A stretch of 64,000 nucleotides of DNA from an uncultured Fibrobacterota bacterium (GTDB lineage Bacteria > Fibrobacterota > Chitinivibrionia > Chitinivibrionales > FEN-1185). Below are positions 34,367 through 60,009 of the stretch, piece after piece. The translations under genes were made by a program, and so were the position numbers. The notes under the pieces are model-generated. The model saw nothing but the letters and a program-made list of their open reading frames with translations, had not been told where the DNA came from and ran no database searches. The stretch is from NCBI GenBank assembly GCA_963729895.1, contig CAVSQB010000009.1, positions 1 through 64,000 on the forward strand, in the 5' to 3' direction. The first letter of the stretch is position 1. Each line of letters opens with the position of its first letter.

Positions 34367-34396
34367 TTCACCGCAAAGACGCGAAGAACGCAGAGA
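34367..34396 (+). repeat. solo CGCAAAG-type arm
   Basis: TTCACCGCAAAGACGCGAAGAACGCAGAGA, 17 nt after the hydA stop. Confidence 0.75.
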
Positions 34397-34453
34397 AGAA
34401 ATAAGAAGATGAAATGGGGGTTTTACCGTTGCGGGAAAATATACCGATTCCAG

Positions 34454-34482
34454 CGTCATTGCGAGCGGAGCGCGGCAATCTC
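34454..34482 (+). repeat. GTCATTGCGAG...GCAATCT REP-like half element
   Basis: CGTCATTGCGAGCGGAGCGCGGCAATCTC hairpin; single copy in the window. Confidence 0.45.
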
Positions 34483-34566
34483 CGGTTGCTATTTTAGGAA
34501 AGAAAAGTCTTGTGCAGAAAACAAACGTGACAAATAGAAATCCACTCTAACAAACGAGGTGCTTGT

Positions 34567-34953
34567 ATGAACAACAAGATTCTTGTCGTCGACGACGACG
34601 TCGATTTCGTAGAAGCCACCACTACCCTGCTGGAAGCCAAAGGCTACAGTGTTGTGAGCGCGGCAAACGGTGAAGAAGGCTATGCAAAAGCGAAGGCCGA
34701 AAAACCGAACGCCATGCTGCTTGACGTGATGATGACGCACGACAGCGAAGGGTTCGACGTTGCCAGAAAGCTCAAGGAAGATCCGGCAACCAAGGGGATC
34801 CCTATTGTCATGATCACCGGAATCCGTAAAAGCAAGGCGCTTCCGTTCTCGTTTGAGCCGGATGATGACTGGCTGCCCGTTAGGGTGGTGCTGGAAAAGC
34901 CCGTGAAGCCGGATGAACTGCTCAAAACGGTGAAGGACGCGATTGCGTGCTGA
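34567..34953 (+). CDS. single-domain response regulator receiver
   Basis: ILVVDDD, LLDVMM, MITG, EKP. Confidence 0.92.
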   Translation: MNNKILVVDDDVDFVEATTTLLEAKGYSVVSAANGEEGYAKAKAEKPNAMLLDVMMTHDSEGFDVARKLKEDPATKGIPIVMITGIRKSKALPFSFEPDDDWLPVRVVLEKPVKPDELLKTVKDAIAC

Positions 34954-35189
34954 GACGCGATGCTGGAAAAGTTGCTTTTCGCATCAGGAAAAGATAGTTT
35001 TTTGAGGGTGAGCAGGTCTAAACGGTTCACACGGAGTAAAACGAACAGAACACATTGCAATCAAGACTCTCTAGTGGCAGGAAAATGACGGCGGTCCGCC
35101 CGACTGCTCGTGCTAAGATACTGTTCTGCAAAGAGAGTTCACAGTCGTAGTCCGGCATTGTACCATTGGCGCTGCCCCAGAAGACTTCC

Positions 35190-35714
35190 ATGACCAAGAA
35201 GAGGATCATTTTCATCATCGCGTCACTCGTGTTTATTTTTTGCCATTGGTACTTTGGAACAAGGGTATTCACTTTCTATTCCTATCCGATTTTTGATAAG
35301 CAACACTGGTATGCCGAACTATTGAAGACCTGGATTCACGACGAAGACAAGAAAAGGTTGCATGTTTGGAAAGACACCATTCCCGTTTTCATGTATGAAA
35401 GGAATATTGCATTGCCGAATGTGGAGGGCTTTACCATCATTTCACTCAATCCAAGATCGGCGGCATGGAACAGGTATCGCAACGGAAGATTTTGTCAGAT
35501 AATACAGGAAAAAGTCCATCGCACTCTGATGGGAAGAGAAATCAAATTAAGAATACGGGATAATTACAATGAGGATACGTCCGCATTCGATATCACGAAA
35601 TCGCGCATTTCCGTGCCGAGGGATTTGGACTTCCTGCTCATCGGGACTAAATACAGGTGGTCTATTCTGAAAGACGAAAAGGGAAAGGCCGGATCTTCAT
35701 CGCTTCATCTTTAA
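35190..35714 (+). CDS. hypothetical protein with N-terminal membrane anchor
   Basis: 174-aa ORF, AT-rich, KKR then a hydrophobic stretch; stop overlaps the next start (TAATG). Confidence 0.55.
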   Translation: MTKKRIIFIIASLVFIFCHWYFGTRVFTFYSYPIFDKQHWYAELLKTWIHDEDKKRLHVWKDTIPVFMYERNIALPNVEGFTIISLNPRSAAWNRYRNGRFCQIIQEKVHRTLMGREIKLRIRDNYNEDTSAFDITKSRISVPRDLDFLLIGTKYRWSILKDEKGKAGSSSLHL

Positions 35715-36715
35715 TGCACAGGCGCCTGCCGTGCCTGTTTTCCGTGTGCCTTGCATCGTGTATCCTTGCCCCGCTTGCATATTCACAAACATTCCTTGCC
35801 CCGGGCCGCCACAAAATCACCTTCAAGAGCAGTTACGATTCCACTTCGCAAACCGCGTACATCATTGTTCCTCAAAGCGCGAAACGGTCGTCGGCAGCAG
35901 TACCGGTTGTCGTTGCTTTGCACACCTGGAGCGCGAACGTGGAACAGCGCGACATGTACGGCGAACTTGAACGCCAGGCGCAGAAACGCGGCTGGCTGTA
36001 CCTGTTCCCGGACTTCCGGGGCGCCAACAACCACCCGCTTGCCTGCGGGTCAGACGCCGCTTGCCGCGACGTGATTGACGCGCTGGAATGGACCGTTGCG
36101 CATTTCACGGTGGATTCCAACCGCGTCTACCTTGCCGGAATGTCGGGCGGCGGGTACATGGCACTGCTGCTCGCCGCCCGCTATCCGTGGCGATGGACCG
36201 CGGTGAGCGCATGGGTGGGGATATCCGATCTGACATCCTGGTATGCGATGCATGCGCACCAGCAGTACGGCGACGACATGCGGCGCTGCTTCGGCGGTGC
36301 GCCGGAAAGCGGCCCGGACATTCGCGCCAGGTACCAATCGCGCTCTCCGCTTGCATTCCTGGCAATCGCCAGGAACGTCCCCTTCGATTTCGCGGCGGGC
36401 CGGGACGACGGCCACGGGAACAACCCGGTTCCCATTAGTCAAACGCTGGCTGCATTCAACGTCATTGCCCGGGCGCTGGGCACCGACACCGTTTCCGACG
36501 AGGAGACCACGCAGCTTTCCGCGTATGGCGGGAGGCTCTCCGCTCCGCACCCAAACGATACTGCGCAGGACCCTGTCTTTGCCCGGCGGATCTTCCTGCG
36601 CCGCTGTGCGGGTAACAGCCGCGTCACCATTTTCAGCGGCGGCCACGAATGGATCCCTGCCGCGGCGGCGGAATGGCTGGGAAATCATGTCGGGCTGGCA
36701 CCGGGCGGCAAATAG
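35714..36715 (+). CDS. secreted alpha/beta hydrolase (prolyl oligopeptidase/esterase-like)
   Basis: Signal peptide, VVALHTWS, PDFRG, nucleophile GMSGGG, C-terminal GGHE. Confidence 0.8.
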   Translation: MHRRLPCLFSVCLASCILAPLAYSQTFLAPGRHKITFKSSYDSTSQTAYIIVPQSAKRSSAAVPVVVALHTWSANVEQRDMYGELERQAQKRGWLYLFPDFRGANNHPLACGSDAACRDVIDALEWTVAHFTVDSNRVYLAGMSGGGYMALLLAARYPWRWTAVSAWVGISDLTSWYAMHAHQQYGDDMRRCFGGAPESGPDIRARYQSRSPLAFLAIARNVPFDFAAGRDDGHGNNPVPISQTLAAFNVIARALGTDTVSDEETTQLSAYGGRLSAPHPNDTAQDPVFARRIFLRRCAGNSRVTIFSGGHEWIPAAAAEWLGNHVGLAPGGK

Positions 36716-36761
36716 CGGCCGGAGTAAACGGTGTGAACGGTGATTACTGCGCTCGTCTCCC

Positions 36762-38141
36762 CTACTCCGTTATCGCCGGTTCAATTACCCGAAACCCTTT
36801 CCATTTCCCCCCTGCAAACCTTACCCACCACACAACAGCCTGAATCACCACAAACGCGGTCGCAATGAGCCATTCCGTAAACAACGTCCGATGGAAAACA
36901 TCCGCCGCTGCAAGCGCGACGATAAACCCGCCGTTCAGCACCAGAGAGGCAACCAGCGTCCACCGGGTGTCTCCGGCCGCAACAAGCGCGGCCACGAGCA
37001 CATAGTTCAACGCGTCAAGCAGGCAGTACAGCGCCACAAACCGCAGCAACATCACGCCAAGCCCGGCAAACCGGGCCAGCGATTCATGCGGCACTGCGTC
37101 GGCGGACACGAAAATGCCGAACAACTGCCGGGGAAACACAACGAAAACGACGGCCAGGGCGATCATCCACACCTGGGACAGAATGGTCCCCCGCAAAGTA
37201 GCTTTTGCGGAAATCTCGGGCCGCCGGGCGCCCTGGCCGTTTCCCACCAGAATCGCCACCGCCTGCGACAGGCCGATAACGGGGAAAAACGCGATGCCGT
37301 TTATCCTCCATGCAATGTTGGTGGCCGCAAGCTCTATGGCGCCGATGCGACCTACAAAAAACACAAAGACCGTCCATGCCGCCATTTCTACCGAAAACCG
37401 GATGCCGCCGGGAAATCCGAATCTCACAAGGCGGCCCAGCAGGTGCCAGTCCGGGCCGCGCGACCGCCACGTTGCCCATTGCCTGCGATTGGCCCGGCGC
37501 AGAAACGTCATGCCGAAAATCAAGGTAATGAGCGCCTGGGAAGAAACGGTTGCCAGCGCGGCGCCCGTAATGCCGAGTCGCGGCATGCCGAATTTGCCGA
37601 ATATCAACACATAGTCGAGCGTGCCGTTGACAGCGAGTCCCACGATATTCACGATCATCACCGCCCGTGTTTCGCCCCTGCCGGAAAAAAAACCGGACAG
37701 CGCGCTTCCGGCGACAAAGAAGAATGCACCGCAGCTGATGATGGTGAAGAACCTGACCTCCATGGCCTGAATAGGCGCGCTATGGCCAACAAAGGCAAAA
37801 AGCGGCTTTGCGCCGAACGCGACAAGTGCGAGCACAACGCCGGAAAATACCGAAAAGTAAATTCCCTGCCACACCGCCGAGGCAACCCGCTCCACCCGTT
37901 TGGCGCCGACATACTGGGCAACGAACGTGGAGGTGTACCCGGCCGTACCGGTGAATGCGCTTGACAAAAGCATTGCCGACATGAACGCCGGCACAACCGC
38001 GGCAATGGCGTCCGACGAGTACCACGAAAGGAAAATGGCGTCCATGAACTGCATGAGTACCACGCCGCTCATGGAAAGAATGAGCGGCGTGGCGAGCTTG
38101 AGGATGCCACGGTAGCTGACGGAGGCGTCGGTGCGAAGCAC
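36762..38141 (-). CDS. MATE family efflux transporter (start approximate)
   Basis: ILKLATP, MQFMDAIF, FVAQYVGA, LIFGKFGMPRLGITGAALAT, LVGNGQGA, GDT. Confidence 0.9.
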   Translation of the reverse strand: MLRTDASVSYRGILKLATPLILSMSGVVLMQFMDAIFLSWYSSDAIAAVVPAFMSAMLLSSAFTGTAGYTSTFVAQYVGAKRVERVASAVWQGIYFSVFSGVVLALVAFGAKPLFAFVGHSAPIQAMEVRFFTIISCGAFFFVAGSALSGFFSGRGETRAVMIVNIVGLAVNGTLDYVLIFGKFGMPRLGITGAALATVSSQALITLIFGMTFLRRANRRQWATWRSRGPDWHLLGRLVRFGFPGGIRFSVEMAAWTVFVFFVGRIGAIELAATNIAWRINGIAFFPVIGLSQAVAILVGNGQGARRPEISAKATLRGTILSQVWMIALAVVFVVFPRQLFGIFVSADAVPHESLARFAGLGVMLLRFVALYCLLDALNYVLVAALVAAGDTRWTLVASLVLNGGFIVALAAADVFHRTLFTEWLIATAFVVIQAVVWWVRFAGGKWKGFRVIEPAITE

Positions 38142-38194
38142 TATTTCAGTTTTCCGTTGATTAGGGTCGGCGAATGACAGGCATTCTTGCGTAA

Positions 38195-39319: not shown

Positions 39320-39403
39320 CTGTTGCCCTTTAGCTAAGACATAGTTATACAAGAATCATTTGGATTGCTGAGCCGGTTCAGCCAGAGCTCTGGAAAAAGA
39401 TTT

Positions 39404-39540
39404 GGGCGTTTCCCTCGCTACGCTCGGGCCGGTCTCCCTCCGGGCTCGGCCGAAAGGCCTCGTTGCCACCCGCCCTACGCCTGTCGGCCGGGTCGGCCGG
39501 CAATCCCGCTTTGGCGGGACCGCTCCGGTCCACCTAACGC
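39404..39540 (+). repeat. repeat family A, copy 4
   Basis: GGGCGTTTCCCTCG...CTCCCTCCGGGCTCGG...CTCCGGTCCACCTAACGC, between hydG and hydE. Confidence 0.8.
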
Positions 39541-39621
39541 AAATCAAAACCAAAAAGTACGACACTCCTTTCCCTCAAAATTCACTTTCGCCTGTCAACT
39601 TTTGTTCGTCAACCGTTCTAT

Positions 39622-39794
39622 AGGTGCCCCGCACGAGTGCTTGCTTTCAGCAACCGCACTTGCTTGGGGGCCACCTGCAGAGGGGGCGTGGGTTCAGACA
39701 ACCGGCTACAATCGGTTCCGACAGTTGCAGCACGCCGGTTGACTGAACCTCAGGGGACGACGCTTGGAAGTACCCGACGGGGTAAACTTCCCCC
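39622..39794 (+). repeat. repeat family B, copy 2
   Basis: AGGTGCCCCGCA...GGGGGCCACCT..AGGGGGC...GGGTAAACTTCCCCC. Confidence 0.6.
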
Positions 39795-39831
39795 ATCAAA
39801 AAACCAATTCTCTAATCCATCATTTTTGATC

Positions 39832-42578: not shown

Positions 42579-42581
42579 GTG

Positions 42582-43985: not shown

Positions 43986-43988
43986 GGC

Positions 43989-44249: not shown

Positions 44250-44276
44250 TGTTCCTCCTTCGTGCGAGACGCCCGA

Positions 44277-44768: not shown

Positions 44769-44769
44769 A

Positions 44770-47320: not shown

Positions 47321-48235
47321 CTATTTTTCCTCCGGATCGGTAATGAAACACTGGCTGTCGTCCTGTGCGAACGTGTTGAGCATAGGCACCTCGTCACCGG
47401 CCGTTCCCGGCACGCTGCCGAACAGCTCCTGCGCATCGCACACAAGTTTCTGGGTGAACCGGCGCAGGTCTATTCCCATGGGACAGGCATTGACGCATGC
47501 GTCGCATGCAACGCAGCGGCCGGCCTGATGGAACATTCTCCCCATGTGGAACACGATGGTTTCAGAAAGCTCGTTGGCCGGAGACACCCACGACGGCTTT
47601 CTCTGGTCCGCAAAGCATGTTTTGCAATAGCAGTTCGGGCACGCCTCGCGGCATGCGTTGCACCGGATGCACTTTGAGATTTCTTTGACAAAGGCCTTCC
47701 ACCGCTCTTCCGAAGACTTTCGCGCGAACGCCTTGACGCGCTCATATCCCGGCTTTGCCGGCTTCCGGCTTTCACCGGCTATGGTTATATCAGCATTCGT
47801 AACCGTCGGGCTCACGCATTCCTGGCAGGCGCGGGCGACTTCTTCCTTCTTGGGCTTTGCGCCTTTGTTCGAGGCAGCCATTCCGCTGCACGGCATGCCG
47901 ATAACAATGAGATTCGCCTTGGGCACCTGGTTTTCCTTCACAAGACCGGAAACCGACCGGCTGTCGCAGCCCTTGGCGATAATTGCTATGTGCGGGGGTT
48001 TGTACCCGTCTTTGGGTCGTGCCGGTTTTTCAAAAAGGCTTGGCAGGAATGCGGCCAGATTCGCCGTGCAGAAGCCGTTCCAGACAAGATGCTCCACGTC
48101 CGCCGCGCTGCGGGCAAAATACGGGCGCGATGAATTGGGAAGGGACCCTCTTCTGAAGCCCACGACCACGTCCACCTTCTTGTCGTCGAACAGCCTCTTC
48201 GCCGCCGCTTTCATCTTTCTTTCTTGGTCCTGCAT
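47321..48235 (-). CDS. FlxC-like 4Fe-4S protein
   Basis: KGCDSRS, GMPC, CIRCNACREACPNCYC, GRCVACDACVNACP. Confidence 0.82.
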   Translation of the reverse strand: MQDQERKMKAAAKRLFDDKKVDVVVGFRRGSLPNSSRPYFARSAADVEHLVWNGFCTANLAAFLPSLFEKPARPKDGYKPPHIAIIAKGCDSRSVSGLVKENQVPKANLIVIGMPCSGMAASNKGAKPKKEEVARACQECVSPTVTNADITIAGESRKPAKPGYERVKAFARKSSEERWKAFVKEISKCIRCNACREACPNCYCKTCFADQRKPSWVSPANELSETIVFHMGRMFHQAGRCVACDACVNACPMGIDLRRFTQKLVCDAQELFGSVPGTAGDEVPMLNTFAQDDSQCFITDPEEK

Positions 48236-48265
48236 CCTTACTTCTCTCTTGCTGTCAATGTTACG

Positions 48266-48718
48266 TTAACAAGCGTTCGCTGCGGCTCTTTCTTTCCTGG
48301 CTATCTTCTTTGATGTCGTAAGGCTGCGAACGTCGTTCACCACCTTTTCGATGAGCGAAGCAAAACGCCCGCCTTCCGAGGCCGACACCCATGAAAACTG
48401 CACCCGTTCCGGCTCGATCCCCAGATATTCCAGAAAGCTCTTGAGCATGGCGAATTTACGACGCGCGACCAGGTTCCCGGAAATGTAATGACAGTCTCCC
48501 GGATGACAACCCGAAACAAGAACGCCGTCGGCCCCTTCCTGGAGCGCCTTGATAATGTAAAGAGGATCAACCCGGCCCGAACACGGTACGCGGATCACAC
48601 GCACGTTCGCCGGATACTGCAGCCTGCTCACGCCGGCAAGGTCCGCCCCGGCATAGGAGCACCAGTTGCACAAAAAGGCGACAATGGTCGGTTCTCGAAT
48701 TTCCGTTGATTTAGTCAA
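48266..48718 (-). CDS. mvhD: MvhD/FlxD-type [2Fe-2S] subunit
   Basis: FLCNWCSYAGAD, RVPCSGR, GCHPGDCHY..GN, WVSASEG. Confidence 0.9.
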   Translation of the reverse strand: MTKSTEIREPTIVAFLCNWCSYAGADLAGVSRLQYPANVRVIRVPCSGRVDPLYIIKALQEGADGVLVSGCHPGDCHYISGNLVARRKFAMLKSFLEYLGIEPERVQFSWVSASEGGRFASLIEKVVNDVRSLTTSKKIARKERAAANAC

Positions 48719-48739
48719 TTACTCTCTCCTCAAAAAGGC

Positions 48740-48812
48740 TTCACCACGGAGACAAACATCCAACACGATTTTGCTCTTCTTCTTCTCTGCGTTCTCCGTG
48801 CCTCCGTGGTGA
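48740..48812. repeat. gene-less element with inverted TCACCACGGAG-type arms
   Basis: TTCACCACGGAGAC ... TCTCTGCGTTCTCCGTGCCTCCGTGGTGA between hdrA and mvhD. Confidence 0.7.
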
Positions 48813-48819
48813 TTTTACT

Positions 48820-51800
48820 TCATATCGTTGCGAGCATGCTCAATATCTGCTCGTTCCTGAACCCGTTCAGGTCTATGGCACCCGCTCTGCACGATGCCGC
48901 GCATGCGCCGCACCCTTTGCATAGCGCCTCGTTGACAACTGCAATGCCCTTCACCGGATCGAGCTCTACGGCGCCGTAGGCGCATACGGCCACACAGGTT
49001 CCGCACCCGCTGCACATGTCCGCCCGGATGGTTGAGATCTTTCCCTCGGACTCAATTGACTTCTTAGAAAGCACGGTGGCCGCCCTCCCTGCCGCCGCGC
49101 GCGCCTGCGCAATGGTCTCCCCGATGTCCTTGGGATAATGGGCCAGGCCGCACACAAACACGCCGTCGGTGGCGAAATCGACCGGCCGCAGCTTGACATG
49201 CGCTTCGAGAAAGAAGCCGTCGGATTCAAGCGGCACCTTAAAGAACTGGGACAGCGCCTTGTTGTCGGGATTTGCAACGATGCCCGCGCTGAGCACCAGG
49301 AGGTCGGGCTTTATCTTTACGGTCCTTCCAAGGATCGTATCGTTGACCGACACAACAAGATCGTTCCCGAGTTTCTTAACCTCAGGTTTTTTGGCTGCAT
49401 CAAACCGGATGAATAGCACGCCCTTCTCGCGCGCGAGCCGGTAATATTTCTCCCGCAAACCATAGCTTCGGATATCCCTGAACAGAAGGTAAACCGCAGT
49501 TGCGGGACTCCGCTCTTTGATCGCTATGGCGTTCTTGAGCGCGTTGGAACAGCATACGCGGCTGCAGTAGTCGCGCGTTTCATCGCGGGAGCCGACGCAT
49601 TGAATCATCACAACTGATTTCAGATTGCCGATTGCGGATTGCGAATTGTCGGCCGCGGTCTGTTCATGGTCCGATCCCGGGTATAGCATCGCTTCGAACC
49701 GGCGCTGGGTAATGATCCGTTCATCCTTGCCGTAAAGGTAGTCTGCCGGCTGAAGCTCATCGGCCCCGCTGGCGACAATCACGACTCCGTGATCGATTGG
49801 CGCACCGTTGCCTTCGAGCTCGGTGTGGAAATTACCGACATAGCCGGATACTTTCTTGATCTTCGAATTCAAGTGCGTCTTGATCTTCGGGTGATGCGTC
49901 ACGTTCTCAATCATATGGCTCAACTCGGGTCTCGTCGCTTTTCCGGAAAGCGTTGAGCGCACGTGCAGCAGGTTGCCGCCGAGCTCGCCTGTTTTCTCCA
50001 GCAGGGTGACGTTGAAATCCTGATTTGCGAGGTCGAGGGCGGCCGTCATGCCCGCAAGGCCGCCGCCGATGACCAGCGCGCCTTTGGTCACTCCCATGCT
50101 CTTTTTATACAGCGGCGCGGCAAGCTTCACTTTCGCAACGGAGGCGCGAACCAGATCGCAGGCCTTGCGCGTCGCGTTTGCGGACTCTTTCTGGTGCACC
50201 CATGCACAGTGTTCGCGGATATTGGCGAAATCAAAAAGATACGGATTAACACCGGCCTCTTCGAGCGTCTTTTGGAACAGCGGCTCATGGGTGCGCGGGG
50301 TGCACGCAGCCACCACAAGCCTGTTGAGCCTGTGCTGCTCCACTGCGGCCTTGATTGCCTTTTGTGAATCCTGCGCGCAGGAAAACATGAGCTCACCGGC
50401 GAATTTCACGCCGGGCAGGCTTTGAGCGTAGTGCACCACGGCCGGGACATCCACAACGGAGGCTATGTTGATGCCGCAACGGCACACGTACACGCCTATC
50501 CTCGGCGGCTCACCGCGCAAATCCTTCTGTCGGGGGAGATCTACCTTTATCTCCTTGACCGGCACATTGCCAAGCGTTGATGCCGCAGCCGACGCAGCGC
50601 CGCTCGCCTCGATTACCGATTCGGGAATGTCCTTGGGCCCGCTCACGCTGCCGCACACAAAGATGCCTGCACGGTTTGTGGAAACGGGTTCCATTGTGTC
50701 AACGCTCACGAAACCGGCCGCATCGATCCGGACGTTCAGGCTGCCGGCGGCGGCCATGGACGACACGGACGGTTGAATGCCGACCGACAGCACGAGCATG
50801 TCGAATTTCCGGGTGGAGACTTTTCCGTCCTGCGTGATGTAATGAATGGTGAGGTCGTTGGTGACAGGGTCGCTTTCCACGGACGCAATGCGACCGTTGA
50901 TCAGCGTGGTGTCGTGCCGGTCCCGAGCCTTGTCGATAAACCGGTCGAAACCCTTGCCGTATGCGCGTATGTCCATGTAGAAAATGGTCGTCTTCGCTTT
51001 TGGCAGGTGCTCCTGGGTGATGATCGCGTCCTTTGCAGCCTGCATGCAGCAAATTGCCGAGCAATGTTCGTTTCCGGCCGAGATGTCCCTTGAGCCAACG
51101 CACTGGAGTATGGCTATCCTTGCCGGCTCTTTCTTGTCCGACGGCCGCAGGATATGTCCGCCCGTTGGGCCGGACGCGCTCAGAAGCCGTTCGTATTCGA
51201 TGCTGGTGACCACGTTGGGAAACACGCCGTATCCGTATTCGCCCTTGAGCTTCGCGTCGAACTCGGTGGTTCCGCAGGCAAGGATCACCGATCCCACATC
51301 GACGGCCATCGCTTCTTCTTTTTGTGTAAAGTCAATGGCATTGGTGCCGCACGACTTCTGGCACAGGCGGCATGTGCCCTTCGTGAGATACAGGCATTTT
51401 GCGGCATCAATAACCGCAACCGCGGGAACAGCTTGCGGAAAAGGAATTCTTATGGCCTTGGTCTGGGACAGGCCTTTGTTATAGGGATCGGGAACCTTGA
51501 CGGGGCACTTGGTAACGCAGATACCGCATCCGGTGCATTTACTTTCGTCAACATAGCGTGGCCGCCTGCGAACTTTCACGGTGAACCTGGGCGGCTCGCC
51601 CTCGATCCCGGTGACTTCGCTGTTGGTCATGATGTGCAGGTAGGGATGACCGCCTGCCTGGACGAGTTTGGGCGAAAGGATGCACATGGCGCAGTCGTTG
51701 GTGGGAAACGTCTTGTCGAGTTGCGACATGCGCCCGCCGATGGATGGCCCGGTTTCCACCAGAAACGTTTCAATGCCCATGTCGGCAAGATCCAATGATG

Positions 51801-51849
51801 CCTGGATCCCCGCTACGCCGCCGCCGACCACCATCGCCTTTTTATGCAT
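48820..51849 (-). CDS. hdrA: heterodisulfide reductase subunit A-like protein (tandem two-FAD form, 1009 aa)
   Basis: GGGVAG, LDKTFPTNDCAMC, inserted ferredoxin domain, QCVGSR..CS.ICC twice, ACTPRTHE, NIREHCAWVH, GGGLAG, C-terminal CSGCGTC/CKGCGAC. Confidence 0.92.
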   Translation of the reverse strand: MHKKAMVVGGGVAGIQASLDLADMGIETFLVETGPSIGGRMSQLDKTFPTNDCAMCILSPKLVQAGGHPYLHIMTNSEVTGIEGEPPRFTVKVRRRPRYVDESKCTGCGICVTKCPVKVPDPYNKGLSQTKAIRIPFPQAVPAVAVIDAAKCLYLTKGTCRLCQKSCGTNAIDFTQKEEAMAVDVGSVILACGTTEFDAKLKGEYGYGVFPNVVTSIEYERLLSASGPTGGHILRPSDKKEPARIAILQCVGSRDISAGNEHCSAICCMQAAKDAIITQEHLPKAKTTIFYMDIRAYGKGFDRFIDKARDRHDTTLINGRIASVESDPVTNDLTIHYITQDGKVSTRKFDMLVLSVGIQPSVSSMAAAGSLNVRIDAAGFVSVDTMEPVSTNRAGIFVCGSVSGPKDIPESVIEASGAASAAASTLGNVPVKEIKVDLPRQKDLRGEPPRIGVYVCRCGINIASVVDVPAVVHYAQSLPGVKFAGELMFSCAQDSQKAIKAAVEQHRLNRLVVAACTPRTHEPLFQKTLEEAGVNPYLFDFANIREHCAWVHQKESANATRKACDLVRASVAKVKLAAPLYKKSMGVTKGALVIGGGLAGMTAALDLANQDFNVTLLEKTGELGGNLLHVRSTLSGKATRPELSHMIENVTHHPKIKTHLNSKIKKVSGYVGNFHTELEGNGAPIDHGVVIVASGADELQPADYLYGKDERIITQRRFEAMLYPGSDHEQTAADNSQSAIGNLKSVVMIQCVGSRDETRDYCSRVCCSNALKNAIAIKERSPATAVYLLFRDIRSYGLREKYYRLAREKGVLFIRFDAAKKPEVKKLGNDLVVSVNDTILGRTVKIKPDLLVLSAGIVANPDNKALSQFFKVPLESDGFFLEAHVKLRPVDFATDGVFVCGLAHYPKDIGETIAQARAAAGRAATVLSKKSIESEGKISTIRADMCSGCGTCVAVCAYGAVELDPVKGIAVVNEALCKGCGACAASCRAGAIDLNGFRNEQILSMLATI

Positions 51850-51852
51850 GGG

Positions 51853-52320
51853 TTATTTTCCGACCTTCGCCTTGGTTTTCTTCGCAACAGGTTTTTTTCC
51901 CGCAACCGCACCCTTCACCAGTTCACGCCTCAGCGTCTGCGCCTTCTTGTCGAACTCACCCTCTTTCGCAAGCATCTCCGCCGGAGCAAACCCGTCCCGT
52001 ACGGCCATGTGCCGGAGCGCGCGCATGACATCGGTAAAATTCACCTGCTGGGGACACCGGGCATAGCACCGGTAGCACATCATGCACAGCCAGATCGCGG
52101 GCGACGCCAGAACTTCCTGACGCATGCCGTAGAGCACCTTGCGGATGATGGTCCTGCAGTTGTACTCCTCGTCGATGTTCGTGACGGGACACCCGGCCGC
52201 GCAGGTGCCGCAGGCGAAACATTTCGTGATGTTCGCCCCGCCGGGCATGAGCGCCACTTCGTCCCGGAAGGTAGGATCGAGTTCTTCTACGACTATGACC
52301 TCTGAGTTACTTTTTGTCAT
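51853..52320 (-). CDS. hdrC: heterodisulfide reductase subunit C-like 4Fe-4S protein
   Basis: CFACGTCAAGCP, IWLCMMCYRCYARCPQ. Confidence 0.85.
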   Translation of the reverse strand: MTKSNSEVIVVEELDPTFRDEVALMPGGANITKCFACGTCAAGCPVTNIDEEYNCRTIIRKVLYGMRQEVLASPAIWLCMMCYRCYARCPQQVNFTDVMRALRHMAVRDGFAPAEMLAKEGEFDKKAQTLRRELVKGAVAGKKPVAKKTKAKVGK

Positions 52321-52359
52321 GATCAATCCACCTCTTGTATTTCTCAGAATTCCGCTTTT

Positions 52360-52431
52360 CAATCTTCAATCGACAATTCTTCCAGGGATTTTCACTCAAT
52401 CCGCAATCTACAATCTAAAATCTGCAATTCT
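52360..52431. repeat. heptamer tandem repeats (CAATCNN)
   Basis: CAATCTT CAATCGA CAATTCT and CAATCCG CAATCTA CAATCTA AAATCTG CAATTCT between metV and hdrC. Confidence 0.75.
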
Positions 52432-52432
52432 T

Positions 52433-53125
52433 CTACGCCTTCGGCCCCATCCCTGCAATGCACTGATCTTCGCGCACCACTTTCCGTGCACCGCCGTCAT
52501 TTGACGTGGACCAGTCCTGCGGAACTGCGAGCGACTCAAGCATCGAAACTTTGTTCAGCGCCTTTGCCCGATCGTAGATGAGCTGCCACGCGCAATCCGT
52601 TTGGTCGCTCACTTCGCATTTACCGTTTCTGGAACTGCCGCACGGGCCGTTCAACTGCCGTTTGGAGCAACGGGTGATGGGACAAATTCCAAAGTACTGG
52701 CCCAGCCGGCAATTGCCGCAGCCCGCGCACTTCTCGGCCCACACTCCTTGCGATTCAAGAATTCCCATGAACTGCGTGTTGAGGCCGGGATACACTGCGG
52801 TTTTGGGAAACCGTTCGGCAAGCGCCTGGACCCCTGCACCGCAGCCGAGCGACAGGACCGCGTCGTAGTCGCCGACCCGCTGGCTCAACACGTCGATGAA
52901 CGCGTCTTCGCACTGGCGTTCGATGGTACACTCATGCACCACCACGCTTTCGCGTCCGGCAAGCTTGAGCGACATACGCAGCGCGGAACCTATGATGCCG
53001 GTCTCGCGCTCGCCTCCGGCAAGACATACGGTGACGCAGGTGCCGCAGCCCACAACGAGCACGCGCTTGTAGTCCTTTACCATGTCGCGAATTTCCGGAA
53101 TCTTCTTACGGTCGGCAACGATCAT
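52433..53125 (-). CDS. metV: MetV-like protein (methylenetetrahydrofolate reductase C-terminal domain family)
   Basis: GCGTCVTVCLAGG, RQCE, GCGAGVQ, CAGCGNC, GICPITRCSK..LNGPCG, CAWQLIY. Confidence 0.88.
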   Translation of the reverse strand: MIVADRKKIPEIRDMVKDYKRVLVVGCGTCVTVCLAGGERETGIIGSALRMSLKLAGRESVVVHECTIERQCEDAFIDVLSQRVGDYDAVLSLGCGAGVQALAERFPKTAVYPGLNTQFMGILESQGVWAEKCAGCGNCRLGQYFGICPITRCSKRQLNGPCGSSRNGKCEVSDQTDCAWQLIYDRAKALNKVSMLESLAVPQDWSTSNDGGARKVVREDQCIAGMGPKA

Positions 53126-53604
53126 CTGTTTCCTCCTTGAACGGCCTGTTCGGCCTGGGCCGCCATCTCGGCGATACCGCTTTCCAAATGCGTTTCACTC
53201 CTGTGCAGTGGACTTACGCCGAGCGGCGCAATGCGCGCATTCATTTCCTTTACGATCTCCGCAAACCGCGGACCTTCGGCGGACGAGAGGTTAAACATCT
53301 CCAGGCGCTCGGGCTCGATTCCGATTTCAGCAAGGATCTGCTTTACACGCTGGACCCGTTTCCTGGCCCGCAAATTTCCTTCGAGGAAATGGCACCCGCC
53401 CTCAAGGCAGCCCGCCACCAAGACTCCGTCCACGCCTTTTTCAAACGCGGCAAGAAGGTAATTCTCCTCGATCTTCCCGGTGCACGGGAACCGCAGCACG
53501 CGCACGTTTGAAGGATACTGCAGGCGCATGGATCCCGCCATGTCGGCCGCGGCATACGCGCAGTAGTGGCAGCAGAAGGCCAGGATCACGGGTTGTCGGG
53601 TCAT
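53122..53604 (-). CDS. mvhD: MvhD-type [2Fe-2S] subunit (second copy)
   Basis: FCCHYCAYAAAD, RFPCTGK, GCLEGGCHF..GN, NLSSAEG. Confidence 0.9.
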   Translation of the reverse strand: MTRQPVILAFCCHYCAYAAADMAGSMRLQYPSNVRVLRFPCTGKIEENYLLAAFEKGVDGVLVAGCLEGGCHFLEGNLRARKRVQRVKQILAEIGIEPERLEMFNLSSAEGPRFAEIVKEMNARIAPLGVSPLHRSETHLESGIAEMAAQAEQAVQGGNR

Positions 53605-53634
53605 TTTCGTATTTGTCCTGTCAAAAGAAAACTC

Positions 53635-53761
53635 TCACCGCAAAGACGCAAAGGTCGCAAAGAAAAATCGAATAGTTAAGAGCAACATTGCTTTCGTTGC
53701 AAATTTCTGTCACAATTTTGGTAACTTTTTTGACTTCGCGTTCTTTGCGCCTTTGCGGTGA
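53635..53761. repeat. gene-less element with inverted CGCAAAG arms
   Basis: TCACCGCAAAGACGCAAAGGTCGCAAAGA ... CTTCGCGTTCTTTGCGCCTTTGCGGTGA. Confidence 0.85.
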
Positions 53762-53774
53762 ATCTTATGTCTTT

Positions 53775-56700
53775 CTATTTCTTCCATCTGGGCTGTGCCA
53801 CGCCAACCTGTTCCAGATACATAGTCTCCGCGGGCTTCTCTTCAAACGACCCGGCAAGCAGGCTGTTTATAGCGCCGAGTATCTGCACATCGAGATAATG
53901 GTGCAGCGTGATCGCCTTTGCGGGACACGACGATGTGCAGCTTCCGCAGCCCATGCACACCGCGCCCTGAACTTCCGCCTTGTTGTCCTTGCCGATCTGC
54001 GGCGCCAGGTACGGACACACATGCACGCAGGTCATGCACGCGATGCACTTGGCCGGGTCCACCCAGGCGGTCTGCGCGCCCACGGGCATTACTTTACGCG
54101 AGAGAATCGACGCGGATCTCGCCGCAACCGCGTTTGCCTGCGCTATGGTCTCACTGATGAATTTGGGCGCATGCGCCGTGCCGCACAGGAAGAGTCCTTC
54201 GCTGGCGAAATCCACCGGCCGCAGCTTGACATGCGCTTCCAGGAAAAATCCGTCGGCGTTGAGCGGAACGCGCAGCAGATCCGACAGTTCCTGACGGTCG
54301 TCGCGCGCAACGATAGGCGCGGCAAGCACGAGAAGATCGGGCGTCATGATGAGTTCGCGTCCGAGAATCTTGTCCGTGACGCGCACCGTGAGCCCGGCAT
54401 CCGTGCTCACGTCCGGAAGGCGCTTGTCGTCGTACCGGATGAACATGATCCCTTTTTCGCGCGCCTCGCGGTACGCAGCTTCCCGGAACCCGTAAGTGCG
54501 CATTTCGCGATACAGCACGAGGATTTTCGCCTTGAGATAGCGCTTGCGCAGAAGGAGCGCGTTTTTGACCGCCGTCGTGCAGCATACCCTGCTGCAGTAC
54601 GGGCGCTCGTCGTTTCGCTGCTCAACGCACTGTATCATCACAATCGTGGACTTGTCCGGCAAAGCAAGCTCATTTCTCGCGATGCGGCCGGACAGTTCGA
54701 GCTGCGTAATGACCTTGTCGATTTTCCCGTAACCGAACGATTTCGGTTTGAGTTCTCGTGCGCCGCTCGCAAGGATCACAACCCCGTGTTCCACCTTGAG
54801 CGTCGCTTCCGGCGTAACAATGTCCGAGGTGAAATCACCCACGTGGCCGTCGACTTTCTTAACCGTGGAATGCAGATACACTTTGATACGCGGATGGGAT
54901 GCCACCCGTTCGATCAGGCTCGACACAAACGCCGACACGTCGCTCTTGTCAAGAGTCTCGTGAATGTCCCGCGCCATGCCGCCCAGGATATTTTCCTTTT
55001 CCACAAGGTGCACCTGGTATCCCTGGTCTGCAATGGAAAGCCCTGCGGTCATGCCGCCGACGCCTCCGCCGATAATGAGCGCGGCGTTCTTTACGGGCAC
55101 CGTTGATTCCACCAGCGGAAGAAGTCCCACGGTGCGGCCCACGGTCATGCGAACCAAATCTTTGGCCTTCTCGGTTGCCTTTTCAGGTTCGGCGGAATGC
55201 ACCCACGAGCATTGGTCGCGGATGTTCGCCATTTCAAGCAGGTACGGATTGAGCCCGGCATCGCGGAGCGTATCGCGGAAGATGGCCTCATGCGTGCGCG
55301 GCGTGCACGATGCCACGATCACGCGGTTGAGACGATGCTTGATGATTTTGTCCTTGATCTGGTTCTGGGTGTCGTCTGCGCATGTGTAAACGTTGCGTTC
55401 CGCAAGCACGACATACGGCAGTTTTCTGGTACGCTGCACCACCGCTTCCACGTCCACCACCGAGGCGATGTTGCTGCCGCAATGGCAGATAAACACGCCC
55501 ACGCGCGGCGGTTCGTCGGTAACGTCGCGCTCCGGCGGATAGATTTTCGTCTTTACACGCGTTCCGCGGGCCGGTGCAAGCAGCGCCATGGCCTTGGCGG
55601 CAACGGCCGATGCCTGCATCACGGTATCGGGAATGTCCTTGGGCTCGCTCAGCGCGCCGCCGACAAACACCCCGGGCCGCGATGTTTCCAAAGGAGAAAG
55701 CTCGCCGGTCCCTACAAATCCCCACCGGTTCACCATCACGTTGAACCGTTCGATCTGTTCCTTGAGGCTTGCGCTGGGTTCAAGACCAAGCGACAGCACG
55801 ACCAGATCGTGTTCCGCCGTGATGCAGCGGTTGTCCTCGCCCATATATGTTATCTTTAGATTTTTGGTGTCGTTGACCTGTTCAACAGACGAGGGACGGC
55901 ACCGGACGTACGAAACGCCCATTTCTTTTGCGCGGTTGTAATACCGGTCGAAATCCTTGCCGTAGGCACGTATATCCATATAATAAACGGTGACCGCGGT
56001 GTCGGGCTCGTGCTGTTTTGCGAGAATGGCTTCCTTGGTCGCGGCCATGCAGCACACCGATGAGCAGTAATCGTTGCACATTTTGGAATCGCGCGATCCC
56101 ACGCACTGAATAAACGCGAGGCTCTTGGGGGTAGTGTTATCGGAAGGCCGGCGCACGTGGCCCTGTGTTGGACCGGCGGCCGAAAGCAACCGCTCAAACT
56201 GGGTATTGGCGATGACGTTGGCGTCGAAACCCGAACCGTATTCGATGCGCCGCATCGGGTCAAATGCGGAAAATCCGGGCGTGAGCAATACTGCGCCCAC
56301 GTCAAGCTCCCGGACCGTTTCTTCCTGCTCGTAGTCGATTGCGCCCGCGCCGCACACTTTTGCACACAGCCCGCACTCGCCCGTTGTGAGGTGCACGCAG
56401 GTTTTGCGGTCTATCGCGGGAACGCGGGGCACTGCCTGCGGATGCGCCATGTCGATATTCGGACGCGCTTCGAGATATTGATTATACGCCGTGTAATGTT
56501 TTTTTGCGGCAATCGTCGCAACGTGCGTATGGTCCGACGCCCCCGTGGGGCACACAAAATCGCATGCTCCGCACACCTGGCACTGCTCGCTTTTTTCATC
56601 GTACGCTGGCAGCACTTCCCGTTTTGCCCCGCGGCCGAACATGCTGATTGCACCCCTGCCCATGAGATCACCGCACACCTTGACGCACAAACCGCACAGG

Positions 56701-57095
56701 ATGCATTCGCCATCGGGCTTTTTCTCAAACGGCGTGGATGTCACGCCGAGAGATGCGGCGAATTCCGCGAGTTTCTTCGATTTCGGCGCTTCGGCAAGAA
56801 GCAGCTCAAGAATGATCTTCCGGTTCTCCCTGACACCGGCCGTGTCGGTTCTTACCGTCATGCCGTTTTCCACGGGGTAGTTGCATGACGAAACCTGTTT
56901 GGGCCCGCGGGGAGTTTCCAGTTCCACAATGCAAACCCGGCACGCGCCGATTGGTTCCATGCCCCGGTAATTGCAAAGCGTTGGTATGGAAATTCCCATC
57001 TGCCGCGCCGTATCCAGGATGGTTGTGCCAGGGGATACCTCGGATGTGCGTCCGTCAATGGTGATGCCGATCTTGTCTGGAGCTGATGTTTCCAT
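53775..57095 (-). CDS. fusion: NuoG/HydA-like N-terminal Fe-S module plus HdrA lacking its first approx. 115 residues
   Basis: IPTLC..GACRVC..SSC, CILCGLC, CQVCGAC; then PQAVP, QCVGSRD, SCTPRTHE, NIRDQCSWVH, GGGVGG, C-terminal ferredoxin. Confidence 0.85.
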   Translation of the reverse strand: METSAPDKIGITIDGRTSEVSPGTTILDTARQMGISIPTLCNYRGMEPIGACRVCIVELETPRGPKQVSSCNYPVENGMTVRTDTAGVRENRKIILELLLAEAPKSKKLAEFAASLGVTSTPFEKKPDGECILCGLCVKVCGDLMGRGAISMFGRGAKREVLPAYDEKSEQCQVCGACDFVCPTGASDHTHVATIAAKKHYTAYNQYLEARPNIDMAHPQAVPRVPAIDRKTCVHLTTGECGLCAKVCGAGAIDYEQEETVRELDVGAVLLTPGFSAFDPMRRIEYGSGFDANVIANTQFERLLSAAGPTQGHVRRPSDNTTPKSLAFIQCVGSRDSKMCNDYCSSVCCMAATKEAILAKQHEPDTAVTVYYMDIRAYGKDFDRYYNRAKEMGVSYVRCRPSSVEQVNDTKNLKITYMGEDNRCITAEHDLVVLSLGLEPSASLKEQIERFNVMVNRWGFVGTGELSPLETSRPGVFVGGALSEPKDIPDTVMQASAVAAKAMALLAPARGTRVKTKIYPPERDVTDEPPRVGVFICHCGSNIASVVDVEAVVQRTRKLPYVVLAERNVYTCADDTQNQIKDKIIKHRLNRVIVASCTPRTHEAIFRDTLRDAGLNPYLLEMANIRDQCSWVHSAEPEKATEKAKDLVRMTVGRTVGLLPLVESTVPVKNAALIIGGGVGGMTAGLSIADQGYQVHLVEKENILGGMARDIHETLDKSDVSAFVSSLIERVASHPRIKVYLHSTVKKVDGHVGDFTSDIVTPEATLKVEHGVVILASGARELKPKSFGYGKIDKVITQLELSGRIARNELALPDKSTIVMIQCVEQRNDERPYCSRVCCTTAVKNALLLRKRYLKAKILVLYREMRTYGFREAAYREAREKGIMFIRYDDKRLPDVSTDAGLTVRVTDKILGRELIMTPDLLVLAAPIVARDDRQELSDLLRVPLNADGFFLEAHVKLRPVDFASEGLFLCGTAHAPKFISETIAQANAVAARSASILSRKVMPVGAQTAWVDPAKCIACMTCVHVCPYLAPQIGKDNKAEVQGAVCMGCGSCTSSCPAKAITLHHYLDVQILGAINSLLAGSFEEKPAETMYLEQVGVAQPRWKK

Positions 57096-57096
57096 G

Positions 57097-58839
57097 TTAT
57101 GCTTTTTTCATTTCGCACACGCCGGCCGGACATTTCCGTCCCGCGATGTGCATGTCGAGATCGTCCCGGAAATGGAGCAGCGCGTTTGTCACCGGACCGG
57201 ACGCGGTGGTGCCGAGCCCGCACACGCTTGCGGCGTTCATTGCCCTGCTGAGCCGCTCGAGCTGTTCGATGGTTTCGGCATTACCCTTTCCCTCGCAGAT
57301 CCTATTCAACATGCCGTACATCTGCCTGGTGCCTTCCCGGCACGGCGTACACCTGCCGCACGACTCGTCCACAAAGAACCCGAGCAAGAATCGCGTCATG
57401 TCAACCACGCAGGAATCGGAGTCCATCACGATGATGCCGCCGGTCCCCATATTGGCGGACTTTCCCGGCACGTCCTGCGAGTCTATTGCCAGGTCGAGCA
57501 TGGACGGCGGCACGCAGCCGATTGACGGCCCGCCCACCTGCACTGCCTTGCATGCCTTATCTCCGCGGATGCCGCCTCCCATTCCGTAAATCATGTCACG
57601 CAGGGTGATCCCGAACGGCACTTCCACCAGTCCGGAAGTTTTTACCGACCCTTCGAGGGAGAAAATCGTCGTGCCGGTCGTCGTCTTCGATCCGATGGAG
57701 GCGTACCACTGCGATCCCCTGGTAATAATCGGCGCAACGCTTGCCCAGGTCTTGACATTGTTCACAACCGTCGGCTTGCCCCAGAGACCCGCGGTCACGG
57801 GAAACGGCGGCCTGCCGCGCGGCTCGCCGGAATGGCCTTCAATGGATTCGATGAGCCCGGTCTCCTCGCCGCACACGTATGCGCCCGCGCCGCGGCGCAC
57901 GCTCAGGCGGAAACTCCAGCCTGAACCGAAAATATCGTCGCCGAGTATCCCATGCTTTTCCGCTTCCGCAATTGCGTGTTCAAGCGTGGTGATGGCGAGA
58001 GGGTATTCGCTGCGGACATAGACATATCCCTGCCTCGCGCCTATCGCGTAGGATCCGATGATCATGCCCTCGATAATCGCGTGCGGGTCGCCTTCGATCA
58101 CGCTGCGGTCCATGGAGGATCCGGGTGCGCCCTCGTCCGCATTGCACACGACATATTTCACATCGCCTTTCGCGTTCCGCGCGAACCGCCATTTCTGGCC
58201 GGTGGGGAAATACGCGCCGCCCCGCCCGCGCAGGCCCGAGGCCGTGATCTCGTCGAGCACGTTCTCAGGTTTCATCGACGAAAGCGCCTTCTGCGCTCCC
58301 CGGTATGCTCCGCGTGCGATGGATTCTTCTATAGACATCGGATCAATGGAACCGCAGTTCCGCATGATCACTTTTTTCTGGTGCCGGAAGAAATCGAGCT
58401 TTGACCATTCCGGAATTCCCTCTGCCGCCGGGCTCGAACCGTAACAATGGACGTCACCGGTGGACACATGCTCTTCAGAGGAGAACCTGCCGAGCGGCTT
58501 TTCGCCGCCGAAATTGCCTTTTGTGAAATATGCCGTGAGCACGGAACGGGTTTTCCGGGCCGTCATGCCGCCGAAGCTCACACGCGGGCCGCCCGGCATA
58601 ACGATGTCGAGCAGGGGCTCCTGGCTGCAGAAACCGATGCAGCCGGTGCGCGACACGGTGGCGTCGGCCTTACATTTCTTTACAGTTGCAAGCGCCGCCT
58701 CCTCCACTTTGCGCGCACCCATGGCAAGCCCGCAGGTGCCGGACCCGATGAGGATCTTCAGCTTCTTCGGATACAGCGAGGCGCTGCCGAGAGCCGCAAG
58801 CCTGTCGAGATCGACCATGGTTTTCACCGCAGTGCTCAT
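57097..58839 (-). CDS. NuoF/HydB-like FMN/NAD(P)H-binding subunit
   Basis: GRGGAYFP, CNADEG, GAGAYVCGEET, NNVKT, ESCGRCTPCR, CGLG; no C-terminal ferredoxin domain. Confidence 0.9.
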   Translation of the reverse strand: MSTAVKTMVDLDRLAALGSASLYPKKLKILIGSGTCGLAMGARKVEEAALATVKKCKADATVSRTGCIGFCSQEPLLDIVMPGGPRVSFGGMTARKTRSVLTAYFTKGNFGGEKPLGRFSSEEHVSTGDVHCYGSSPAAEGIPEWSKLDFFRHQKKVIMRNCGSIDPMSIEESIARGAYRGAQKALSSMKPENVLDEITASGLRGRGGAYFPTGQKWRFARNAKGDVKYVVCNADEGAPGSSMDRSVIEGDPHAIIEGMIIGSYAIGARQGYVYVRSEYPLAITTLEHAIAEAEKHGILGDDIFGSGWSFRLSVRRGAGAYVCGEETGLIESIEGHSGEPRGRPPFPVTAGLWGKPTVVNNVKTWASVAPIITRGSQWYASIGSKTTTGTTIFSLEGSVKTSGLVEVPFGITLRDMIYGMGGGIRGDKACKAVQVGGPSIGCVPPSMLDLAIDSQDVPGKSANMGTGGIIVMDSDSCVVDMTRFLLGFFVDESCGRCTPCREGTRQMYGMLNRICEGKGNAETIEQLERLSRAMNAASVCGLGTTASGPVTNALLHFRDDLDMHIAGRKCPAGVCEMKKA

Positions 58840-59744
58840 GAGAATTGTTCCAGTATCGCGTCCATATCTTCGGGATCAACCTTGCCGAAGCTCACGTCGT
58901 CGATGCGCATGGACGGCGACAAGGCGCACAGGCCCAGGCAGCGCACGGTACGCAAGGTAAAGCGTCCGGTCGTGTCGGTTCCGCCGTCGCTCACGCCGAG
59001 TTTCTTTTCGAGAAGAGAGAGCAACGCGCCGGAATGCTGCGAGTGGCAGCTTGTGCCGCTGCATACCTGGATAACGTGGCGCCCGGCCGGCTCGAACCTC
59101 ATCTTGTCGTAAAAACTCGCCACCTTGAGGGCGCTCGCCAGCGGAATGGCGAGCCGCGACGCAGCGTGTTCCACAATGGGGCGCGGCAGAAAGCCGTAGG
59201 TCCTGTTGGTTGCCTCGAGCACGGGCATCAGCGCGCCCGCATCACCCTGGTGCTTTGCAATGATATCCGTCAGAAATGCCTCATCTTTTTTGTCAAGTTT
59301 GGCGGCGGGCTTTGGTTCCGTCACGGTCCTTGGAATGTTTCGCACCGGGCATCGCTCTATGCAGTCGCCGCAGCCGGTGCATTTGTCCTGGTCAACGAAG
59401 CGCGGCCTGGTTCTCACGGTTGCCTTGAAATTCCCAGCCTCGCCCTCGAGTTTCACCACCTCGGACATGGTAATCACGTCGATGTTCAGGTCGCGCATGC
59501 AGGCGACAACCTTCGGTGAAATGATGCATGTGGCGCAGTCGCCCGTGGGAAATGTCTTGTCGAGCCGCGCCATGTTTCCTCCGATGGTGGCGCTCTCCTC
59601 AACAAGATACACGTAGAACCCTGCTGCGGAAAGATCCAACGATGCCTGAATGCCCGCGATCCCGCCGCCGCATACAAGCACGGCGCCTACAGGCTCTTTC
59701 TTGGCTTTAGCCGGGACCGGTTCCTTAAGAGTTTCCGCGATCAT
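58836..59744 (-). CDS. fusion: HdrA N-terminal FAD-binding segment plus NuoE-like [2Fe-2S] domain
   Basis: GGGIAG, LDKTFPTGDCATC, CTGCGDCIERCPV; then LMPVLE..YGFLP, VCSGTSC, CLGLCALSP. Confidence 0.85.
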   Translation of the reverse strand: MIAETLKEPVPAKAKKEPVGAVLVCGGGIAGIQASLDLSAAGFYVYLVEESATIGGNMARLDKTFPTGDCATCIISPKVVACMRDLNIDVITMSEVVKLEGEAGNFKATVRTRPRFVDQDKCTGCGDCIERCPVRNIPRTVTEPKPAAKLDKKDEAFLTDIIAKHQGDAGALMPVLEATNRTYGFLPRPIVEHAASRLAIPLASALKVASFYDKMRFEPAGRHVIQVCSGTSCHSQHSGALLSLLEKKLGVSDGGTDTTGRFTLRTVRCLGLCALSPSMRIDDVSFGKVDPEDMDAILEQFS

Positions 59745-59786
59745 GACGTTTTGTCCCTTTTTGTTCCGTCAAAAGAAATGCAAGAC

Positions 59787-59905
59787 TCACCGCAAAGACA
59801 CAAAGGTCGCAAAGGAATGCAGAATTGTTACGTCAAGAAAGTTGACAATATGCTGCATTTGCTCTATTTCCAGTTTTCTTTGCGTCCTTCGCGCCTTTGC
59901 GGTAA
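59787..59905. repeat. gene-less element with inverted CGCAAAG arms
   Basis: TCACCGCAAAGACACAAAGGTCGCAAAG ... CTTTGCGTCCTTCGCGCCTTTGCGGTAA. Confidence 0.85.
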
Positions 59906-59979
59906 ATCTCCTCTTCCGAACGATCAATTTCCAGGATCTTTCCCTTCACCGGTAAAAGCCTAACGTACTCTCCGGTACT

Positions 59980-60009
59980 TCTCTGTGTTCTCCGTGTCTC
60001 CGTGGTGAA
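59980..60009 (-). repeat. TCACCACGGAG-type arm (partner degenerate)
   Basis: Reverse complement TTCACCACGGAGACACGGAGAACACAGAGA, 11 nt after the stop at 60021. Confidence 0.7.

Follow-up and report, generated by a model that had tools for sequence, protein, structure and literature searches.

Among the described systems closest to the small repeat element reported here are REPINs, extragenic units of about 100 bp with two conserved inverted repeats and a variable spacer, which occur in many copies; in the accessible part of the source, their partner genes, the RAYTs, are described as vertical, and REPINs are given as not detected in archaea (10.1101/2021.07.10.451892). The element of our study was found in a stretch of 64,000 nucleotides (hereafter the window; positions 1 to 64,000 of the forward strand of contig CAVSQB010000009.1, assembly GCA_963729895.1) of an uncultured Fibrobacterota bacterium, whose genome, named G000 here, comprises 4.41 Mb and is 96.7% complete. 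It consists of an arm, either a gene for a GxxExxY protein or a gene-free spacer, and an inverted arm. We give a probability of about 60% to the reading that these are small selfish elements, resembling REPINs or MITEs (miniature transposable elements with inverted repeats), that would be cleaved and moved by a nuclease of the PD-(D/E)XK type.

Comparison with described systems

Like REPIN-RAYT systems, the elements are built of inverted repeats that enclose a variable spacer, exist in many copies with a single cognate gene per genome, and persist for long. Compared with what the accessible part of that source describes, they differ in their enzyme, which is of the PD-(D/E)XK type (PF13366) and not HUH/Y1, in their arms, which are tandem 9-nt direct repeats and not short palindromes, in a protein tree that mixes phyla and includes an archaeon, and in a location at stop-start junctions with fixed polarity. 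Eight matches to PF01797 (Y1 transposases) were detected in G000, none of them at an arm locus. Membership in the REPIN-RAYT group was rejected, since palindromic arms, a cognate Y1 enzyme and vertical descent are all lacking. With MITEs, as presented in the same part of that paper (10.1101/2021.07.10.451892), they share gene-less units having the terminal inverted repeats of a gene-bearing element; here, however, the partner is no known transposase, the interiors are unrelated, the units persist across species, no consistent target duplication is seen and the copies are not near-identical.

Two further systems resemble the element in single features, as far as the available text of each source goes. 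Intervening sequences of 23S rRNA that carry an open reading frame (ORF) are likewise selfish elements of about 0.45 kb with one small ORF inside a host transcript (PMC4990558), whereas our element lies between protein-coding genes, has dozens of gene-less copies and no Rfam match. The TAACTGA repeats of Beggiatoaceae are also short tandem units inside operons and near start codons, but they are direct 7-mers, almost never inverted, and no word beginning with 'nuclease' occurs in the main text (PMC4679880).

The protein family itself, PDDEXK_3 or GxxExxY (PF13366, TIGR04256), is listed with unknown function and multiple transfers in the consulted part of a review, which makes no mention there of flanking arms or gene-less copies (PMC3424549); the protein of the window is a full member. 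Elsewhere, in the excerpts available, GxxExxY appears as an aside on neighbours of reverse transcriptases. A literature search covering few subscription papers and no supplements yielded no description of a GxxExxY arm element.

Anatomy of the arm family

Each arm has a TCACC outer end followed by three 9-nt units of the form CRCRRAG, with a choice of purine at seven positions. A matrix seeded on the nine full arms of the window retrieved 57 arms of at least 22 bits from the genome and none from the reversed genome, and a 19-nt matrix found 62 arms of at least 20 bits against 0 in the reversed-genome control; the extended set of this second matrix, comprising 64 arms in 41 clusters genome-wide, was used below. 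The arm family is not a chance product. Position 6 of the arm is G in 43 cases (CGCAAAG type) and A in 21 (CACGGAG or CACAGAG type). There are 19 pairs, the gene-less ones being 81-271 nt long, and in all 19 the two partner arms agree in subtype; solo and truncated arms are frequent. Only one pair in G000 encloses a gene, namely that of the GxxExxY protein. Gene-less spacers have a mean GC content of 40%, compared with 55% for the genome.

The gene-bearing element lies on the minus strand between two ATP-binding cassette (ABC) permease genes. Its 5' arm (23119..23146) starts 9 nt past the upstream permease stop, the 127-aa GxxExxY/PDDEXK_3 gene (22703..23086) is the sole copy found in the genome, and the 3' arm (22657..22684), of the CGCAAAG subtype with its motif reading on the plus strand, stops 22 nt short of the downstream permease's start.

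An earlier sequence-only reading had listed five gene-less or solo copies, all of which are present, with coordinates differing by no more than 1 nt. A solo CGCAAAG-type arm (34368..34395, plus strand), partnerless and not folding, follows the stop of a group A6 [FeFe]-hydrogenase gene by 18 nt. The other four are on the minus strand: a gene-less CACGGAG-type pair (48741..48812), the 3' (left) arm of which is reduced to 13 nt, between an hdrA-like gene and mvhD/flpD, 7 nt past the stop; a gene-less CGCAAAG-type pair of 127 bp (53635..53761), also between an hdrA-like gene and mvhD/flpD, 13 nt past the stop; a gene-less CGCAAAG-type pair of 119 bp (59787..59905) upstream of an HdrA/NuoE-like gene; and a solo CACGGAG-type arm (59981..60008), 12 nt past a glutamate-synthase-like stop, which shares its spacer with the preceding pair.

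The same reading had described all copies as beginning with TCACC and as intergenic inside operons, mostly 7-17 nt behind a stop codon. The arm at 59905, however, starts with TTACC. That arm also stands 115 nt past the stop, because the arm at 60008 precedes it in the same spacer; the remaining distances are 18, 7, 13 and 12 nt. The genes flanking the arm at 34368, for the hydrogenase and a response regulator, are 217 nt apart and need not form one operon. The spacers of the 127- and 119-bp pairs are indeed unrelated (their local score of 13 compares with a 95th percentile of 18 and a maximum of 21 in shuffled sequences). The word GTCAAAAGAAA, noted before both pairs, is present there at distances of 4 and 8 nt, but it is no feature of the family: with only 2 of its 13 genomic copies at arms, we rejected it as a part of the element.

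Position and polarity at gene junctions

Using gene calls from our own codon model, which overlooks even the GxxExxY gene and may put some starts in the wrong place, 63 of the 64 arms are intergenic, and their positional bias is pronounced: no more than 25 nt separate the beginning of 28 of 63 arms from a preceding stop codon (null 4.4%, p 1e-21), and no more than 45 nt separate the end of 21 of 63 from a following start codon (null 8.1%, p 1e-8). Junctions carrying arms are co-directional in 36 of 43 cases, compared with 1639 of 2561 for all spacers of at least 30 nt. An AAGAT leader is found on arms after stops and is absent from those before starts; the direction of the unit is therefore tied to transcription. 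The codon use of genes flanking arms is more like that of the host, with a per-codon median of 0.45 as against 0.33 (33 and 2001 junctions, respectively; p 7e-8). Within the window, the junctions concerned are hydrogenase/response regulator, two of the hdrA-like/mvhD kind, and glutamate-synthase-like/HdrA/NuoE-like. A promoter and terminator scan of positions 48000-61000 gave counts at the level of shuffled sequences, and no arm pair there forms a terminator-like site.

Arm type and the nuclease

The ORF at 22703-23086 (minus strand) matches PF13366 with 150.7 bits (cut-off 22) and TIGR04256 with 156.9 bits (cut-off 35). Residues D69, E79 and K81, which we take to be the PD-(D/E)XK catalytic-type triad, occur unchanged in all 58 aligned relatives. 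The structure model (predicted local distance difference test score 95.1) matched restriction-like nucleases with Z 6-7.7, among the folds being BpuSI (Z 7.7), Cas4 (Z 7.7) and Hjc (Z 6.7); all remained below 8. Foldseek returned no match at E<=0.001, and no solved structure had a sequence match. The predicted fold is a generic PD-(D/E)XK one, which fits a nuclease and names no substrate. We do not claim a junction resolvase, since all fold matches are generic with Z below 8 and Foldseek gave none at the threshold used.

The genome was compared with five relatives, G001 to G005. Counts of CGCAAAG, CACAGAG and CACGGAG arms are 30/2/15 in G000, 44/11/2 in G001, 53/68/13 in G003 and 31/32/20 in G005, and the arms of the resident gene are of the CGCAAAG type in G000 and G001, CACAGAG in G003 and TTGCCACAGAG in G005. 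In all four genomes, in G005 only marginally, the commonest subtype is thus that of the resident gene (30 of 47, 44 of 57, 68 of 134 and 32 of 83 arms). A TTGCC end, as in the arm of the G005 gene, was counted 15 times in that genome, compared with 0-1 times in each of the other four. G002 has a GxxExxY gene of another clade and 0 arms of the CRCRRAG class.

A similar correspondence was observed across the protein family. Among 139 GxxExxY loci whose flanks were long enough, an inverted flank-to-flank match reached a score of at least 30 in 92 (in shuffled sequences the 95th percentile was 25 and the maximum 34), some of the matches being hairpins wholly within each side. In a quick tree built from 143 proteins, a branch with 99% support in the Shimodaira-Hasegawa-like approximate likelihood ratio test (SH-aLRT) has 85 of the 86 genes labelled CRCRRAG on one side and other arm words on the opposite side. 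The labelled genes come from 15 named phyla, including an ANME-1 (anaerobic methanotrophic) archaeon; phyla are interleaved and genes of the same genus scattered, many forks being weak. Three genomes (G024, G059 and G060) hold genes on both sides of the branch, with different arms. As judged from these sequences, arm class tracks the clade of the nuclease and not the host.

The sequence-only reading had taken the copies for non-autonomous relatives, in two subtypes, of the element at 22656-23147, and had looked for a GxxExxY gene flanked by the CACGGAG subtype. Such a gene was not found in G000, nor among three same-genus genes with arms of the CRCRRAG class, but 10 of 47 loci with both arms detected do carry one. 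The positional bias and these CACGGAG-flanked genes are the two observations on whose absence that reading had staked itself, so it stands in this respect, and the states of the permease junction described below lend it further support.

Two observations concern single GxxExxY loci. The gene in G005 (L154, C10:26100-27700), a genome with 131 arm matches, has a frame break near its 5' end, which may be either decay or an assembly error. In one 6.6-kb IMG/VR contig, CACAAAG-type arms border a GxxExxY gene on each side (L221:740-1240); a phage vector was considered and dropped, this single armed locus giving too little support.

The same junctions in related genomes

At the ABC permease junction, all three states of the site were encountered within a single genus, among the six genomes. 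Three are filled, G000 and G001 with CGCAAAG-type arms and G003 with CACAGAG arms; G005 displays a gene-less pair; and G004 and G002 show plain spacers of 8 and 12 nt. The gene-less pair of G005, located exactly where three relatives hold the gene, suits the idea that only the gene-bearing element moves and that gene-less pairs are full elements after internal deletion of the gene, as do the common solo and truncated arms and the lack of near-identity among gene-less copies. On the other hand, no remnant of a gene interior was detected (best score 29 versus a shuffled maximum of 28; 42 spacers, 3 interiors), not even at three junctions gained only in G000, and about 40 loci would each require a near-complete deletion with one gene surviving. 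We regard such decay relics as unlikely.

At the three junctions of the hdr region, arms are also present in G003 and G005, and G004 displays a plain spacer or a different hairpin family. The hdrA2-mvhD2 junction carries CGCAAAG pairs in G003 and G005 and a CACGGAG pair in G000, and the junction of 53635..53761 has pairs in G003 and G005 and a plain 13-nt spacer in G004. At the hydrogenase junction, no arm was found in G003, the sole relative in which the comparison was possible. Nine further G000 junctions, taken from six regions with paired arms, were compared. Arms were present at 4 of 8 in G003, 4 of 7 in G001, 4 of 9 in G005, 2 of 9 in G004 and 0 of 8 in G002. Three of the nine have a pair in G000 only, with 4-5 relatives armless there; the relatives mostly show gaps of 1-5 nt or overlapping genes, apart from an arm-free 84-nt spacer in G005 at the junction on C31. 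These three are gains in the G000 lineage. One of them, into a gene overlap of 17 nt, has CATGAAC on both sides, a 7-nt direct repeat as a staggered cut would leave.

The reverse comparison started from 60 loci, the first 30 matches each from G003 (181 in all) and G005 (131 in all); duplicates were merged, and 15 loci without flank orthologs and nine not adjacent in G000 were dropped. Of the resulting 25 junctions, five of them within or next to the window, 7 have arms in G000 as well, compared with a background of 35 among 2530 co-directional junctions. Arm subtype differs at four of the seven common junctions. In the comparison of the nine junctions, arms are kept in 14 of 33 cases across the four close relatives. 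The G000 and G001 spacers at C16 remain recognisably alike, as do those of G001 and G004 at C22:175k; therefore, the unrelated spacers found in equally close genome pairs, often with both arms switched, are better read as replacement than as drift. Two gene-less pairs of G003 lying 72 kb apart on C2 (L162 and L163) have a near-identical 61-nt spacer in common, which may reflect either a recent copy of the whole unit or an identical nested heptamer element in both.

Folding and pairing of the arms

The sequence-only reading had also suggested that the pairs, as long hairpins in mRNA, could set processing sites and subunit stoichiometry. In such a scenario they would serve the host, cuts by RNase III or blocks to decay tuning subunit ratios, with GxxExxY being a passenger or acting on RNA itself. 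The pairs of the window fold strongly (z -3.3 to -7.6), as any inverted repeat would, and the transcribed strand folds better in 3 of 3 window pairs and 13 of 16 pairs in G000 (p 0.02); the fixed polarity, the favoured junctions between genes with host-like codon use, and the arms kept across species at 7 of 25 and 14 of 33 junctions point in the same direction. However, the strand preference was not repeated in the relatives (14 of 23, p 0.24). If mRNA pairing were under selection, one would expect more G·U than A·C on the transcribed strand and a closer match between partners than between arms of different pairs. The ratio of G·U to A·C in the core was 19:10 in 16 G000 pairs, 23:16 in 23 pairs of relatives and 35:36 in 47 filled loci, none being significant, and 180:172 in a wider set; a G·U bias spotted by eye in the first two units of the G000 pairs (19:10, p 0.14) was discarded, the relatives giving no significant result either. 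Agreement between partner arms (17.2 of 19) did not exceed that with arms of their subtype drawn at random (17.3). The two solo arms do not fold beyond shuffled sequences (z -0.03 and -0.71) and still keep the motif, and in G004 the same hdr/mvhD genes lack arms of this family. Rfam gave 0 matches in the window at gathering scores. Host-serving hairpins are thus, in our opinion, quite improbable; the pairing results are more in keeping with a motif recognised by a protein than with an RNA stem tuned for pairing, and leave room for a weak or secondary effect of the pairs on mRNA.

Proposed mode of spread and points against it

For the reading as nuclease-driven elements, we consider the following course most likely. 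The stand-alone GxxExxY nuclease would bind the tandem 9-nt units in DNA and cut near their outer ends, and through host repair gene-less units would be copied to operon stop-start junctions not yet occupied, units at already occupied junctions being swapped. What we infer beyond the comparisons concerns binding, cutting, the route of copying and expression. Since insertion preserves the upstream stop and the downstream start and is sense to transcription, the promoter-less gene could be expressed from host operons, with the host barely harmed. A bolder formulation, namely a class of mobile DNA driven by a PD-(D/E)XK protein of 127 aa, with its own repeat code of one arm word per lineage, homing on stop-start junctions in highly used operons and writing over its own earlier insertions time and again, is put forward only tentatively and strikes us as doubtful; it would represent a very small natural system of sequence-addressed integration leaving both neighbour genes intact.

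Several observations weigh against nuclease-driven spread. The subtype match in G005 is marginal (32 versus 31 arms) and the gene there carries the frame break; G004, 94% complete, has 20 arms and no GxxExxY gene was found in it; and the 15 CACGGAG arms of G000 lack a matching gene. Unlike fresh MITEs, gene-less copies are not near-identical, the best spacer-spacer score among 15 spacers being 25 against a shuffled maximum of 21. Target-site duplication is a feature of MITEs, and among 17 pairs no family-wide duplication was seen (mean longest shared word 4.94 versus 5.16 in shuffled sequences). As to the protein tree, it is based on few columns with 56 of 140 inner branches unresolved, 80 of its loci came from a search seeded with the window protein, and the arm classes were defined after the flanks had been viewed. 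A single origin of the three permease-junction genes was not rejected by the approximately unbiased (AU) test (p 0.18), which gives no support to the separate origin of the G003 gene that we had considered, and co-transfer by itself would likewise cluster arm type on the tree. Moreover, other repeat families occupy the same junctions, so the site preference need not come from GxxExxY.

Host recombination or another enzyme might accordingly spread the arms, with GxxExxY merely riding between them; the arms persisting in G004 with no gene found and the stacking of several unrelated repeat families at the same junctions agree with this. Yet arm class follows the protein clade and not the host, the dominant subtype of a genome follows its resident gene, no other gene lies between arms in G000, and the Y1 transposases are located elsewhere, making another mobiliser very unlikely.

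Should nuclease-driven spread prove true, the widespread PF13366 family would gain a function, and the lifestyle of REPIN-RAYT systems would be extended to a second enzyme class unrelated to the first. Long AT-rich spacers in tight energy-metabolism operons, which could be mistaken for host regulatory RNA, would be explained as well. The match between arm word and resident gene offers cognate and non-cognate arms as built-in controls.

Other repeats nearby

Operon junctions appear to be common hotspots for several repeat families. A second family, of the GTCATTGCGAGC...GCAATCTC type, which may be linked to GIY-YIG genes, lies behind the solo arm at 34457-34490 of the window and inside two pairs of G000, in the spacers at C22:168572 and C28:167666. 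The hdr-operon junction at 52321-52432 contains heptamer repeats (AGATTTT/AGATTGT) in G000, G003 and G004 and a CGCAAAG pair in G005; similar heptamer arrays, which may be connected with four-helix-bundle genes, are nested in many pairs of G003 and G005. A third hairpin family, of the CCCTCTCC/GGAGAGGG or CCCCCTAAATCCCCC type, occupies the hdrA2-mvhD2 and glt-nuoE junctions of G004 (L032) and is nested in the G000 pair at C5:366733-367003.

One G000 arm (L261:280-783; C5:82124-82682) is cut after two units and followed by an opposite-strand ORF for an IS1595-family transposase. In the window, long near-identical inverted copies are found at 1245-1366 and 12040-12123, and intergenic short tandem repeats of the GCGTATA/GCGTAAAT type at 9890-9948, 10360-10409 and 19877-19931.

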